64,000 nt of DNA from a virus (lineage: Duplodnaviria > Caudoviricetes): positions 1-64,000 of the IMG/VR virus record IMGVR_UViG_3300021255_001778; one strand, written 5' to 3'. The translations under genes and the position numbers were made by a program. The notes under the pieces are model-generated. The model was not told the DNA's origin, ran no database searches, and worked only from the letters and a program-made list of their open reading frames with translations. Below are positions 57,106 through 60,543 of the stretch, piece by piece (positions within the stretch are counted from its first letter, which is position 1; each line of letters opens with the position of its first letter).

Positions 57106-57251
57106 AGGCACGGGCGAGGATTTGAACCTCGCATGGAAAACCGCCCGTCCTTCATGGCTTAGTTGTTATGCACTTATTTGATGGCATAGTTCCTGGTTTC
57201 ATGAAAGCATTTCCTTACGGCGTAAGCGTCTACCCATTTCGCCACCGCGCC
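57106..57251 (-). ncRNA. 146-nt tRNA-like RNA (acceptor stem, D arm, T arm; mini anticodon hairpin; 80-nt variable arm)
   Basis: GGCGCGG/CCGUGCC acceptor; U8, Leu-type D loop AAAUGGGUAGA; GCGAGG-UUCAAAU-CCUCGC T arm; no encoded CCA. Confidence 0.8.
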
Positions 57252-57310: not shown

Positions 57311-58315
57311 TCATATTATTGTAAGCTTCCAGTTCTCGTAGTCCTTCTTGTAGTCATTCACTCTCCGCAAGAATGTGTTCCTATCTTGAACTGTTATACT
57401 CGGGTCATCTTCTTTGTAGTTCAAGTGTCTGTCATGATATTCACCCTGTGCTTTTATCCTCAGAAACATGTTTGCAAGTCCTTCGAAGTTCTTATCTGTC
57501 AGATATCCGGCAATTTCAAGCTCTCTAAGTCTGTAAAACGCACCAGACAACCATACTCTGTAGTAACTCAGGTTCAGATCCGTCTTGCCTTCGGCTATTG
57601 CAGCCTTTATCTTTCTGGATATATTCGATCTAAATACTGAAAGGTCTGGATCGCTAGAACCTCTTACTCCTCTAAAAATGCAATCTCCTGGGACTCTATC
57701 TCTCGTTATCCATCCCTTGTTTATGTACTTAGAGTTGATGTATAAGAAGCTCTTAGCTTCTACGCACTGCCTTACTGTATTAATTCCTTCCTTATATAAA
57801 ATGCCTTGCCAAGTCTTCGCCTTTATAATCATTCGATCAAAATCAATATCATTGCTTGTAAGATATATAACATCTTCTTCTCTACACCCACCATATGCCA
57901 TCCAGAAGAAACATTTTATCGGATCAAATGTCGTTCCATCTTCTTCAATAAACACGTCATCGAGGAATTTCTTCAAATGTAACGGACTCTTCACCGTGCG
58001 AGTTCTCATTTGTTCTACAGCCGGACTCGTGACGTTCAATCCATCAAGACAAGTCCCGTCTACATTTTTTGAAGCACACCACTTAATATAAGAACGAATA
58101 GTTACAATGTCGTTCTCACTACTTCTTGCTCTTGTACCAGTAGTAGCGTTATTGAGTACAGCCTGTATCTTCTCTGCACTCATTGTACAAACATCTTTTC
58201 CTTCTTCCTTCTCTATCTTCTGGAAAAGATTGAATGTTTTTCTTCTTGCGGCTCGCGCAGCCTCAGTGTTAGTGGTTTCGACCAAAAAGCGTTCCTTTAA
58301 TTCCGCGTTATACAT
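57311..58315 (-). CDS. Tyrosine-recombinase-fold protein lacking box II catalytic residues; candidate MrpR/YopR-like repressor
   Basis: Box I MAYGGCREEDV retained; H-x-x-R replaced by LSYYRVWLSG. Confidence 0.6.
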   Translation of the reverse strand: MYNAELKERFLVETTNTEAARAARRKTFNLFQKIEKEEGKDVCTMSAEKIQAVLNNATTGTRARSSENDIVTIRSYIKWCASKNVDGTCLDGLNVTSPAVEQMRTRTVKSPLHLKKFLDDVFIEEDGTTFDPIKCFFWMAYGGCREEDVIYLTSNDIDFDRMIIKAKTWQGILYKEGINTVRQCVEAKSFLYINSKYINKGWITRDRVPGDCIFRGVRGSSDPDLSVFRSNISRKIKAAIAEGKTDLNLSYYRVWLSGAFYRLRELEIAGYLTDKNFEGLANMFLRIKAQGEYHDRHLNYKEDDPSITVQDRNTFLRRVNDYKKDYENWKLTII

Positions 58316-58346
58316 TGTTTACCCTCCTAAGATTATATGTATAACG

Positions 58347-58772
58347 CTACACTAATGTAGCGTTTAAGTAGGAAGCTTTTTGCCAAACCATCAGCAAGGT
58401 TTCCTGATCGATATACGATATAGCCGACGTTGCAAGCAGATTAGCCACCGCTATCTTAGACATATATTCGTCTGGCATCTTCGTGAGATAATTTCCTATA
58501 CGCTCTTTGGACATTCTTTCAGGATTTTCACATAATACCATGCTATCCTTTTTTAGTCCTGTGTCTTTTGATGATACAAAAACATGAGTAGGAAGATTTT
58601 TCTTTTTCACAGAAGATGTTAGTGGCAGAGCGATTATGTTAGGGCTATATTTATTGCCAACATTGTTCTGAAAAACCAGCCCAGGACGCCATCCACTCTG
58701 TTCGCTGCCATGCCCGTCGAATCGCATCAAATAGACCTCACCGATCCTGATACTTCTAGCCGCGCGAGTCAT
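58347..58772 (-). CDS. mazF: PemK/MazF-family endoribonuclease
   Basis: GEVY...GSEQSGWRP...QNNVGN...PLTS...LPTHV...DSMVL, closely following EndoA/MazF motifs. Confidence 0.9.
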   Translation of the reverse strand: MTRAARSIRIGEVYLMRFDGHGSEQSGWRPGLVFQNNVGNKYSPNIIALPLTSSVKKKNLPTHVFVSSKDTGLKKDSMVLCENPERMSKERIGNYLTKMPDEYMSKIAVANLLATSAISYIDQETLLMVWQKASYLNATLV

Positions 58773-58800
58773 GAGAGCACCTCTTTTCTCTGCTATATGT

Positions 58801-58844
58801 ATAATAACACGTCAGAGAACAGATGTCAATACACTTTTATGGCA
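58801..58844 (-). promoter_or_regulatory. SigmaA promoter of mazF (TTGACA-N17-TATTAT, extended TG) with operator copy 7
   Basis: -35 at 58824-58829, -10 at 58801-58806; motif variant TGCCATAAAAGTGTATTG (2 mismatches) at 58827-58844. Confidence 0.8.
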
Positions 58845-58846
58845 AA

Positions 58847-59182
58847 TTATTTCTTATCTACAATAAGATAAAACCTGTTTTCACCATTTTTAGTACTTTC
58901 GTCCCTGCATATTATCATAGCAGAATTTGTGATACCCCCCTCACCCTCTTCAAACTCGATTCTGATGACATTGGTGAAAGATATATACGTTTCCTTGTAC
59001 TTTGACGTAAAATAAATTGTATCAGGACATGGAAAAGCGGCTACATTCGCAAACCTCATAGAAGCACTGCAATTTCCAACCCCAGTAAACTTCTCAACTT
59101 GATCGCAGAGATTGAAAATAAACTGATTGTATTTATTTTCCTTGCAAAACCTCTCGAACTCAAGAACTGTCAACTTTATCAT
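58847..59182 (-). CDS. Hypothetical protein downstream of the structured leader
   Basis: Start set to ATG 59182 after GGAGGT. Confidence 0.7.
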   Translation of the reverse strand: MIKLTVLEFERFCKENKYNQFIFNLCDQVEKFTGVGNCSASMRFANVAAFPCPDTIYFTSKYKETYISFTNVIRIEFEEGEGGITNSAMIICRDESTKNGENRFYLIVDKK

Positions 59183-59350
59183 GTCATACCTCCAATTGCA
59201 TTTTGATTGGCGGTATGGTACACTAATCAAGAGCGAATTAGTGGGAAAATGGTTCGCTCTGGCTGTATATCAGCCGCCAATCTGTACCTTACGTCTGCCA
59301 AACCTTGGTACGGATTGTTACTTTTTGCCGGAGACCCTTGCGGGTCTCCT
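59183..59350 (-). ncRNA. Structured ~168-nt leader RNA with an H-type pseudoknot
   Basis: 8-bp GCAA hairpin (59330-59349), 5-bp stem, 9-bp closing helix, 8-bp stem + 6-bp pseudoknot. Confidence 0.65.
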
Positions 59351-59356
59351 TTTAAA

Positions 59357-59385
59357 ATGATAGCACATCAGCTTTTAAAAAGCAA
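59357..59385 (-). promoter_or_regulatory. SigmaA promoter TTGCTT-N17-TATCAT (extended TG)
   Basis: Predicted +1 (~59350) coincides with the first hairpin base. Confidence 0.7.
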
Positions 59386-59398
59386 ACACGTGTTCGGG

Positions 59399-60350
59399 TC
59401 ACTCAATAGCTTCTCTTAGCATACCGATCGCCTCATTTATCATAGACACCGCATCTTCAAGATAGTCAACGCACTCTTCCATCTTGGAATACCTGTCAGA
59501 ACTCTCGAGATTTTCCGGCATATTTCCAAGAGCATCACTCTCTTCGTCATATACATCACTTACAATATCATAGGCGTTTTCTAATTCTGATATCGCAATG
59601 TTAAGGCGATTTCTTCTCTTGTTATTCATGATATCCACACTCCATCAAACCGCATTTCCATTCTGATCGCAGGTGGGTTTTCTTTTGATGCGGATATCGT
59701 TATATCATTTGCTCCACGCAAAAATGTGTACACTGGATCGTTTTCTTTAAACTCACACATGTCGAACTCGACACCTATGATAATTTCTTTTGTGTCTATA
59801 TCAACGTCTACATCGATACCATATGAATTATCGCATCTGCCTGACAACAATTCATCTATCCCGTCACATATTCTATGGATATTATCCATACGTCCTGGAG
59901 AAAACCTCCATCCATCTTCGATTTCCTTTGTTGCCTGATTAATAACAATTTCTGCCACATCATAACATTTTATCAATCTTCCACCACCTTTCTCGAAGTC
60001 CCGTAGTATGTTACATTGAACGAGATATCACCATTTCTGACAGGAACTATCTCAGCCACATCTGCGTGCTTTAGTAACTCGCATAACACTGTCGGATTTT
60101 TGATGTGTATTTCCTTGCCAGACATTAGAATATCTGCACTTCCGATAAATGGTTCATCAACTCTTTCTTTGATGTCATCACAATCAATTATGCGTGAAAA
60201 TACACTTAGAGCAGTTCTGACCTCATACATTCTGTCTTTATCCTGTATAAATGTTCCCACCATGTCTTTCCGAATGTCTTCTTTTAGGTCTTGCAAGACT
60301 TCTTCGAAATCACTGTCCATGTAGTCACCGTCCTTTCTTGTCCATATCAT
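59399..60350 (-). CDS. Three acidic hypothetical proteins (59399-59638, 59626-59976, 59973-60350)
   Basis: Coupled track ORFs. Confidence 0.65.
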
Positions 60351-60543
60351 TCAGAATGAGATCTATAGCCCTATTTATTAAGGAATTAACACTCTCTCCG
60401 TTGGATGCTGCCACCTCTTTTAATACGTCTTTCTTTCCTTTGCTTGTCAGTACGAGAATCCGGTCGTATTTCGTTTCGTACGATTTATCGTTCCATTTTT
60501 TATTTGCCCTTTTCTTTGCTTCGCTCATAGACATAATGATCAT
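60325..60543 (-). CDS. Arc/RHH-type small DNA-binding protein
   Basis: SEAKKRANKKW...YDRI...KG-x-K...A...GESVN-x-x-I-x-x-AI. Confidence 0.75.
   Translation of the reverse strand: MIIMSMSEAKKRANKKWNDKSYETKYDRILVLTSKGKKDVLKEVAASNGESVNSLINRAIDLILNDMDKKGR

Follow-up and report, generated by a model that had tools for sequence, protein, structure and literature searches.

The window analysed here, a stretch of 64,000 nucleotides (nt) that forms part of an 83.8-kb IMG/VR virus record (IMGVR_UViG_3300021255_001778, positions 1 to 64,000), carries on its minus strand a structured RNA of about 165 nt, which is probably the 5' leader of a 111-residue gene heading the mazF module of the phage. We consider it likely, from the pattern of base pairing and its conservation, that this leader acts in cis as a two-state translational switch placed before that conserved gene, which is referred to below as the partner of mazF. 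Indeed, computation shows that two sets of helices exist in the leader, that they are mutually exclusive and only a few kcal/mol apart, and that both are kept by compensatory changes. The first-pass annotation of this region had proposed an unrecognised riboswitch or attenuator with a pseudoknot at its core: a conserved cis-acting leader that has no Rfam match and has exclusive helices at the ribosome-binding site does stand, but the pseudoknot core fails.

The two states compete for one shared strand (59226-59205), formed by a joining segment (the joiner) and by a strand complementary to the Shine-Dalgarno sequence (SD), and the exclusive partners of this strand are 59282-59265 or 59196-59181. 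In state A, the joiner and the anti-SD strand would pair with an upstream look-alike of the ribosome site, composed of the loop and 3' half of a small hairpin (Ps) together with GAUUGGCGG, the 5' strand of helix P1, resulting in a long rod with the variable hairpin P2 on its top and in a free SD and AUG. By pairing with the anti-SD strand, the P1 5' strand would thus act as an anti-anti-SD. In state B the upstream strand would fold into Ps, P2 would stand alone, and the joiner and anti-SD would pair with 59196-59181, so that the SD would be buried along with the start of the AUG and initiation presumably blocked. The rod can form during transcription before the SD emerges, and new transcripts may therefore start in the ON state; a trans-acting factor would then set the balance between the two states.

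Mutually exclusive helix sets in the leader

Folding of the 170-nt leader yields -59.9 kcal/mol, as compared with -38.6 ± 3.8 kcal/mol for dinucleotide shuffles (z -5.6, with none of 200 shuffles as good). The individual helices listed in the first-pass annotation are all present at the positions given in Table 1, namely the 5' hairpin (H1), the GUACC/GGUAC pairing (within H2), the perfect 9-bp helix P1, which ends 11 nt ahead of the SD (GGAGG, 59193-59189), the small hairpin GGCUG/CAGCC (Ps), the perfect 8-bp stem of P2 and a 6-nt complement to its loop (CACUAA/UUAGUG, 59243-59238 with 59226-59221); the claim of a structured RNA also gained comparative support for H1, P1, Ps and the P2 stem. 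The minimum free energy (MFE) fold of the window differs from the structure described there. It keeps H1, Ps and the P2 stem, and it contains a hairpin absent from that annotation, in which 59223-59206 pair with 59196-59181 (CAUACC-G-CCAAU with AUUGG-A-GGUAUG, lengthened by GUGU with ACAU), so that the SD and the first two start-codon bases are sequestered. An extension of H2 that is also part of the MFE fold (CAAUC/GAUUG) was rejected, as GAUUG becomes GACUG in relatives and is not compensated. The H2 position always holds a hairpin in the relatives, in varying form, such as UAUAACCC/GGGUUAUA in L010 or a longer stem with the UUUGGC loop in L017.

The joiner is the segment on which both states depend: it pairs with the loop and 3' half of Ps (59272-59265), lengthening the rod, or, together with the bases that follow it, with the SD-AUG region. 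AGUKUAYCAYACC, which covers it, is the most conserved segment in all clades and has a single occurrence within the window.

Homologues of the 111-residue protein were found in five clusters with 66-78% identity, and more distant relatives were added through the upstream 79-residue protein and a full HMMER search. In these relatives a small gene is followed by about 220 nt of intergenic sequence, by a gene of about 105-111 residues, by mazF and by the MrpR-like gene; one relative (L012) is devoid of the entire block. No close relatives were found among deposited phage genomes by blastn or tblastn, and neither single-protein scans of IMG/VR with either flanking protein nor DNA-pattern scans of IMG/VR for the leader RNA returned a match. 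A pattern scan of metagenomes gave 15 loci, of which only L030 (on the contig of L010) matched the model, the rest being at chance level. A 572-nt contig of the European Nucleotide Archive with a partner homologue (L016) was set aside, having an adapter-like start (1-40) and a different upstream region.

The intergenic region is alignable throughout the close relatives, and the identity of the leader within the close clade amounts to 0.75, whereas the synonymous third positions are at 0.49 in the partner gene and at 0.55 in mazF. Single-base insertions and deletions, which are not multiples of three, shift the frames, and a conserved reading frame is therefore ruled out; in agreement, no conserved small open reading frame (ORF) of the kind used in leader-peptide attenuation (erm/cat type) is present in the leader alignments.

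We have built a covariance model (R1) from six close sequences and used it to align all nine distinct leaders, that is, those of eight relatives and of the window. In the rod, the nine pairs of P1 continue past a small asymmetry into a helix between the Ps loop and 3' half (UG..UAUAC) and GUGUA..CA of the joiner, and then into P2. Across the nine leaders 90% of the cells are paired in this arrangement, and its covariation (0.377) exceeds that of column shuffles (0.192) and of slid partners (0.05-0.13). Changes on both sides are seen in three P1 pairs, two extension pairs and all 7 modelled P2 pairs, and the extension pairs 23-99 and 27-96 covary. The helices of state B (Ps, P2 and the sequestor) are 87.9% paired in the same nine leaders, with a covariation of 0.281 against 0.159 for shuffles. 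Here, Ps has a compensatory change from C-G to U-A in L010 and L015, and the sequestor, which is 85% paired in the clade, changes from U-A to C-G in L017 and from A-U to G-C in L015. L017 has GGAGG, CCUCC and GGAGG as its three strands, the upstream one being a literal copy of the SD. By constrained folding, states A and B are separated by -5.6 to +6.4 kcal/mol in the nine leaders; the sequestor is favoured in the window and in L004, the rod in the other seven. Outside the leader, recurrent weak matches of R1 (E 0.05-0.8) where mazF ends and the MrpR-like gene begins in three relatives (L002:3771-3873, L003:3788-3873, L015:1435-1490) probably reflect an A-rich stretch and an SD.

The same alignment bears on the H-type pseudoknot which the first-pass annotation took as the functional core, made of the 8-bp stem and of a loop pairing over 6 bp with 59226-59221. 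The 6-bp complement does exist in the window, and a 4-bp core of it (CACU/AGUG) is kept in 4 of 6 close relatives. However, in L006 and L007 a G of its 3' strand has become U, which mismatches the loop (C.U), and this very change is compensated in the rival rod helix, where pair 27-96 goes from U.G to A-U. The loop partner is missing altogether in L002 (loop CGGCUU), L010, L015 and L017 (tetraloop UCGC), and the 76% pairing of the second stem refers only to the 7 sequences with letters at that place. In the wider family described below, the loop ACACCACUC is without a complement in the joiner UGUAGUAUA. Moreover, what is known of pseudoknot geometry makes it sterically implausible that a 3-nt linker (loop 3) spans an 8-bp stem 1. 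A pseudoknot core is thus very improbable, and its two stems are better read, on the evidence of these alignments, as part of the competition between folds.

A reading without any switch would take the rod as a constitutive element for processing or stability (an RNase III site or a barrier to decay) and the alternative fold as incidental. In its favour are the length of the rod, an irregular hairpin of about 25-30 bp, and the stable hairpin at the 5' end. RNase III sites are frequent in phage leaders, and in the leader of lambda cIII an inhibitory structure is relieved when RNase III binds (PMC2777011). We nevertheless find this reading quite unlikely, as the helices of state B (Ps and the pairing of the joiner with the box before the AUG) have compensatory changes of their own, which would not be maintained if the rod alone mattered.

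G.U pairs occur on the sense strand only, as with the four in P1 of L003, and the structure is therefore that of RNA of the mRNA strand. Inverted repeats and a nearby gene with a recombinase fold might suggest a DNA-level element, such as an array of operators, an origin or a site at which the neighbouring recombinase-like protein recombines DNA. This is hardly credible, considering that the helices are kept via G.U pairs on one strand, that covariation keeps pairing and not sequence, and that the targets of the pairing are the SD and the AUG.

The leader in a wider family of mazF loci

An alignment of MazF pulled 104 loci, 30 in species-representative genomes and 74 on IMG/VR viral contigs, this MazF subfamily having a wide distribution among the phages and prophages of Clostridia from gut and rumen. 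The genome loci belong mostly to metagenome-assembled genomes (MAGs) of Clostridia from human and animal guts (Oscillospiraceae, Ruminococcus, Roseburia, Acutalibacteraceae). Some of the MAGs with the module (L050, L054, L057, L060) are labelled Alistipes, Bacteroides or archaeon, which likely reflects mis-binning of phage contigs and not a true host range.

In most loci a gene of about 100-115 residues ends just ahead of mazF, and nearly all of these encode homologues of the 111-residue protein. The leader is found at the same position in 70 of the 104 loci (46 distinct core segments), with a fixed arrangement: the joiner YUGUAGUAUAYCAC, a linker with the SD (AAAUCAAUGGAGG), and between SD and AUG a box such as ACUACAGG or GCUACAAA. 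Pairing of the joiner with the box extends over 6-11 bp in nearly every member, and the loop and 3' half of the small upstream hairpin (e.g. CUACAGG) pair with the same joiner bases. Both pairings vary in a compensatory manner. The cells of the joiner with the box are paired at 75.5%, pair 7-67 being U-A in 13 cases and C-G in 12, and pair 6-68 being C-G in 9 and U-A in 9; those of the joiner with the hairpin 3' half are paired at 79.5%, one joiner position being found as G-C 12 times, as A-U 11 times and as G-U 6 times. The small hairpin itself is 71% paired, with 46 cells changed on both sides against 21.9 in shuffles and a covariation of 0.350 against 0.181. One strand thus covaries with two partners, the signature of a switch. 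In agreement, the MFE folds of 36 diverse leaders are split between both states.

The matches of R1 in this wider set are weak, and a second covariance model (R2) was therefore built from the wide family itself. In five host genomes of 2-2.6 Mb it matches a single site each, located ahead of the partner-mazF pair, and among 151 sampled genomes of the same order it finds one firm site and one doubtful one. The doubtful site (L138) was rejected, being weak (E 7e-4) and by eye unrelated. Such counts would fit a prophage-borne element.

The clade of the window and the wide family share synteny, a homologous partner protein and the architecture of the leader. Outer P1 and the anti-SD pairing are strong in the window clade and in the subgroup L095, L122, L119 and L039. 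The most distant MazFs (L129-L132, about 50% identity) are without the leader and without a PH-like partner, and have upstream instead a helix-turn-helix protein (HTH_7/HTH_28; for example, L129:1962-2246 and L132:445-714); the leader therefore travels with the PH-like partner. Taken together, the alignments lead us to regard the leader as a sizeable, covariation-supported RNA family of gut Clostridia phages that is uncatalogued in Rfam. It would be a new entry for Rfam-type catalogues and, for the study of RNA switches, a natural example of three-way covariation in which one strand has two partners.

Candidate effectors and the role of the module

The conserved single-stranded bases of the leader offer a possible clue to what shifts the balance. 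ACCAC is found 59 times in 37 leaders, against 12.6 expected (z 12.6), and its complement GUGG is not enriched; in the window, the elements are UACCA in the H2 loop, AACCA..CCCAC in the P2 loop and UACCA in the joiner. The P2 loop CCAUUUUCCCACUAA is the homologue of the ACACCACUC and AACCACA loops of the wide family. As repeated single-stranded loop motifs are typical of protein operators, we prefer, tentatively and with somewhat less than even confidence, an effector protein that recognises the ACCA(C) elements of the two loops (H2 and P2) and of the joiner. This could be the 111-residue protein or MazF, in which case the toxin-to-partner ratio would be under translational feedback. Alternatively, the balance may be shifted by a metabolite, as in a riboswitch, or by an RNase III mechanism like that of lambda cIII, or the switch may be purely kinetic.

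Of these, an orphan metabolite riboswitch would have the three-way junction of P1, Ps and P2 with the joiner as its aptamer, and a ligand that stabilises P1 and the rod would turn translation ON. The exclusive helices, with the anti-sequestor located 5' of the sequestor, match the layout of translational ON riboswitches; in addition, conservation of the joining strand is high and the leader has no Rfam match. However, most of the joiner conservation is explained by its two pairing partners, and the conserved unpaired bases form a short motif repeated in hairpin loops, which resembles a protein operator more than a ligand pocket. Furthermore, P2 and its loop vary widely in length, down to a tetraloop end in L017, and the regulated gene has no metabolic or transport function that hints at a ligand. 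A riboswitch is for these reasons unlikely.

A leader that senses MazF itself also seems improbable. Here free MazF would bind or cut single-stranded ACCA(C) or UAC sites in the loops and in the joiner, and cleavage in the stretch from joiner to SD would detach the sequestor strand and thereby increase partner translation, as a negative feedback. The leader does invariably head the gene adjoining this MazF subfamily and does have repeated single-stranded motifs, and the MazF of E. coli cleaves its own mazEF transcript in a post-transcriptional autoregulation (PMC5888573). On the other hand, the candidate motifs are not avoided in the window sense strand or in 101 partner and mazF genes, and the model presumes that the partner is an antitoxin, which is a putative role.

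A different relation to the toxin had been suggested in the first-pass annotation, in which the folded RNA would bind and neutralise the phage MazF as a single-copy, type III-like antitoxin. Type III antitoxins do inhibit toxins with a Kid/MazF-like fold. In the present case, however, Tandem Repeats Finder (58300-59700, minimum score 30) detects no tandem repeats, the scan gives no terminator-like site after the RNA, and the RNA is set apart from mazF by the conserved 111-residue gene and by a second, likewise conserved promoter. It is visibly the SD and AUG of the next gene, the one upstream of mazF, that the conserved alternative pairing targets, rather than the toxin. An antitoxin RNA is therefore very unlikely indeed.

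Several observations weigh against the two-state switch and its proposed effector, and have to be set beside the evidence above. The sequences are related and the set is small, so that the shuffle controls overstate significance, and the predicted transcription start and the regulatory effect are themselves inferred. Some leaders strongly favour one state, which would also fit a mostly constitutive structure. The broad-family alignments were made with MAFFT, and the register of the small hairpin was corrected after a slid control. Matches between clade and family models are weak, with R1 reaching down to E 3.5e-4 at the syntenic place and R2 matching L002 at E 9e-4. In the wide family, neither outer P1 (best-helix score 9.9 against 9.3) nor the direct anti-SD pairing (10.3 against 8.9) is above shuffled strands. 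Finally, ACCAC/CCAC taken as a MazF site is not avoided on the sense strand of the window, nor depleted in the 101 partner and mazF genes under synonymous shuffling.

Control of MazF modules is normally exerted by the antitoxin, through repression of transcription. By position, the partner would here take the place of the antitoxin: the neighbour of the toxin is not MazE but a protein with a predicted PH-like fold, and we propose that it is gated by an uncatalogued two-state RNA. As no terminator is seen between the partner gene and mazF, the latter can probably be transcribed from either promoter, and translation of the partner would be gated separately. Work on the SPbeta-family phage phi3T shows MazF to take part in the choice between lysis and lysogeny, and lysogeny to be influenced by small proteins of the phage that inactivate MazF (PMC10769878); MrpR is the SPbeta repressor (PMC10516654). 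By analogy, a lysis-lysogeny circuit may plausibly include a MazF partner that is gated in this way and lies next to an MrpR-like gene, and the leader offers a handle on how such phages set toxin activity next to an SPbeta-type (MrpR-like) repressor. A more specific proposal, which we regard as doubtful, is that an atypical toxin-partner module, in which the PH-like protein replaces MazE, has the leader as its RNA sensor. The leader would read the output of the module through the ACCA(C) elements, be it free MazF cutting or binding RNA or the binding of the partner or its complex, and would set MazF activity beside the MrpR-like repressor, feeding the lysis-lysogeny decision of gut Clostridia phages.

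Gene order, feature positions and known systems

All genes around the leader are on the minus strand. Their order starts with a NifS-like cysteine desulfurase, a small ribbon-helix-helix protein and two ORFs without assignment, and continues with a 79-residue phrog_4068 protein, the 216-nt intergenic region with the leader, the 111-residue ORF, a 75-nt gap with a strong promoter, and mazF; it ends with an MrpR-like protein with a recombinase fold and an RNA ligase. The 111-residue gene starts with ATG at 59182-59180.

Table 1. Features of the leader and its surroundings, in window coordinates unless a locus is named
Feature	Positions	Strand	Remarks
79-residue phrog_4068 gene	59399-59638	-	
Inverted repeat CGAAC-N4-GUUUG, then CUUUUU	59378-59396 (stem 59383-59396)	-	after stop of the 79-residue gene; overlaps the -35
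Putative leader promoter	59357-59385	-	weak -35 TTGCTT 59385-59380; 17-nt spacer; extended -10 TGCTATCAT 59365-59357
H1, 8-bp hairpin GGAGACCC-GCAA-GGGUCUCC	59330-59349	-	at the 5' end of the leader
H2, GUACC...GGUAC with inner stem-loop (UUUGGC loop)	59284-59311	-	59311-59307 with 59288-59284; carries the first ACCA element
P1 5' strand GAUUGGCGG	59274-59282	-	look-alike of the SD region; 9/9 pairs with 59213-59205
Ps, small hairpin GGCUG-AUAUA-CAGCC	59261-59275	-	overlaps P1 by 2 nt
P2, 8-bp stem with 15-nt loop CCAUUUUCCCACUAA	59230-59260	-	stem 59260-59253 with 59237-59230
Joiner UUAGUGUACCAUA, candidate switch strand	59214-59226	-	GUGUA..CA has two alternative partners
P1 3' strand, anti-SD, CCGCCAAUC	59205-59213	-	pairs with 59282-59274 (state A) or AUUGGAGG (state B)
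Sequestor 3' strand AUUGG-A-GGUAUG-ACAU	59181-59196	-	holds the SD and the first two start-codon bases
111-residue gene, putatively regulated	58847-59182	-	predicted PH-like beta-sandwich with N-terminal helix
mazF promoter TTGACA-17-TATTAT	58829-58801	-	TG before the -10; score 11/12; kept in all clades
mazF	58347-58772	-	PemK_toxin E 3e-22
tRNA-Gln(UUG) in relatives	L034:3962-4036, L036:3954-4027, L037:3958-4033, L072:3997-4071, L074:3984-4058, L017:2829-2901		after the MrpR-like gene
tRNA-Ile(UAU) in a relative	L003:4935-5006		at the equivalent place

Transcription of the leader is predicted to start near 59350, on account of a conserved extended -10 (TGnTATCAT) of which T.TG.TAT.AT is invariant in the alignment of close relatives; a consensus scan did not list this promoter because its -35 matches only 3/6. 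The inverted repeat that precedes it is a single copy within the window. In the relatives its stem is invariant and its 4-nt loop variable, and it is kept in the distant L015 and L017 and missing from the clade of L010, whose promoter differs; it could be a weak terminator or an operator. H1, which has a compensatory change from C-G to U-A in L006 and L007 and a wholly different sequence in L017 (GAAGGACUCC/GGAAUCCUUC), is not followed by a U-tract on the minus strand and is probably a 5' stabiliser. When read on the plus strand (59330-59356), a run of U follows the hairpin, with 4 U in the window and 8 in L017 (about 705-740), and H1 could also stop antisense transcription. A promoter-like site on the plus strand is seen at 59112-59139, within the 111-residue gene. 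As regards the P2 loop, complements to it elsewhere in the window are at chance level, including that of its CCAUUU (59247-59252) with AAAUGG at 57230-57235 on the minus strand, which extends over 6 nt.

The 111-residue protein has no match to a Pfam or PHROG family, and its homologues are invariably encoded immediately ahead of this MazF subfamily. Its AlphaFold model reaches a predicted local distance difference test score (pLDDT) of 92 with an alignment of 58 sequences, as compared with 58 in an earlier model, and the structural neighbours of the model are weak (Foldseek E of at least 0.04; VIA-align Z of at most 5.8, with YojF of B. subtilis and PH/PTB domains). In MazF, the Pfam match covers residues 11-108 of 141, and the C-terminus (58347-58440) is a conserved extension of about 30 residues past the PemK domain that ends in ASYLNAT. 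Just upstream of the mazF promoter, within 58801-58846 on the minus strand, lies a conserved box (CCAUAAAAAUGUA) that is kept in all clades and to which the neighbouring MrpR-like protein may bind as its operator. Several relatives carry a gene for tRNA-Gln(UUG) behind the MrpR-like gene, at a distance of about 1 kb downstream from mazF; the tRNA genes near mazF may relate to the targets of MazF.

In respect to catalogued RNAs, the whole window has 0 matches in Rfam 15 at gathering score, and a search of the region 58000-60500 at E up to 10 returned two rows only, both at chance level; the related loci of the wide family matched only tRNA in Rfam 15. The pemK motif is a candidate cis-regulatory RNA obtained from comparative genomics and associated with genes of the PemK/MazF family in Firmicutes, and in this it resembles the present leader. 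Its Rfam model (RF02913, 61 positions, gathering score 34.8 bits) fails to match anywhere in the 83.8-kb record with E up to 10, and is absent from the Rfam scans of six and of twenty related loci. The leader described here differs in its length of about 165 nt and in preceding the partner gene and not mazF.

The RNA antitoxins ToxI and CptI share with the leader the location of a structured RNA upstream of an endoribonuclease toxin, in a phage-related context. Contrary to these, the leader is single-copy and has no repeats, is not adjacent to the toxin, lacks a terminator and would gate a ribosome site. We know of no dedicated folded leader in the mazEF operon of E. coli. The likeness to that operon is in the possible logic of an RNA-level feedback within a MazF module (PMC5888573), which in E. 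coli proceeds via ACA sites in the coding mRNA. A closer parallel in arrangement is that of translational ON riboswitches such as the add adenine riboswitch of Vibrio vulnificus, where the order is likewise anti-sequestor, sequestor and SD, and the 5' helix frees the SD; unlike them, the leader has no recognisable aptamer or Rfam match, and its conserved unpaired bases are repeated loop motifs.

The alternative structures of the lambda cIII mRNA, reportedly described by Altuvia et al., offer a further comparison. There is no sequence or structural homology with the present leader, which has an upstream decoy in a small hairpin, additional hairpins with ACCA(C) loops and Clostridia hosts. In both cases, however, a phage leader or start region has two exclusive folds, one of them occluding the ribosome site, and the gene is tied, in the present case putatively, to the lysis-lysogeny circuitry; in lambda, the balance is shifted by a trans-acting protein, RNase III (PMC2777011), as we suggest that it may be in this leader by a factor recognising its loops.

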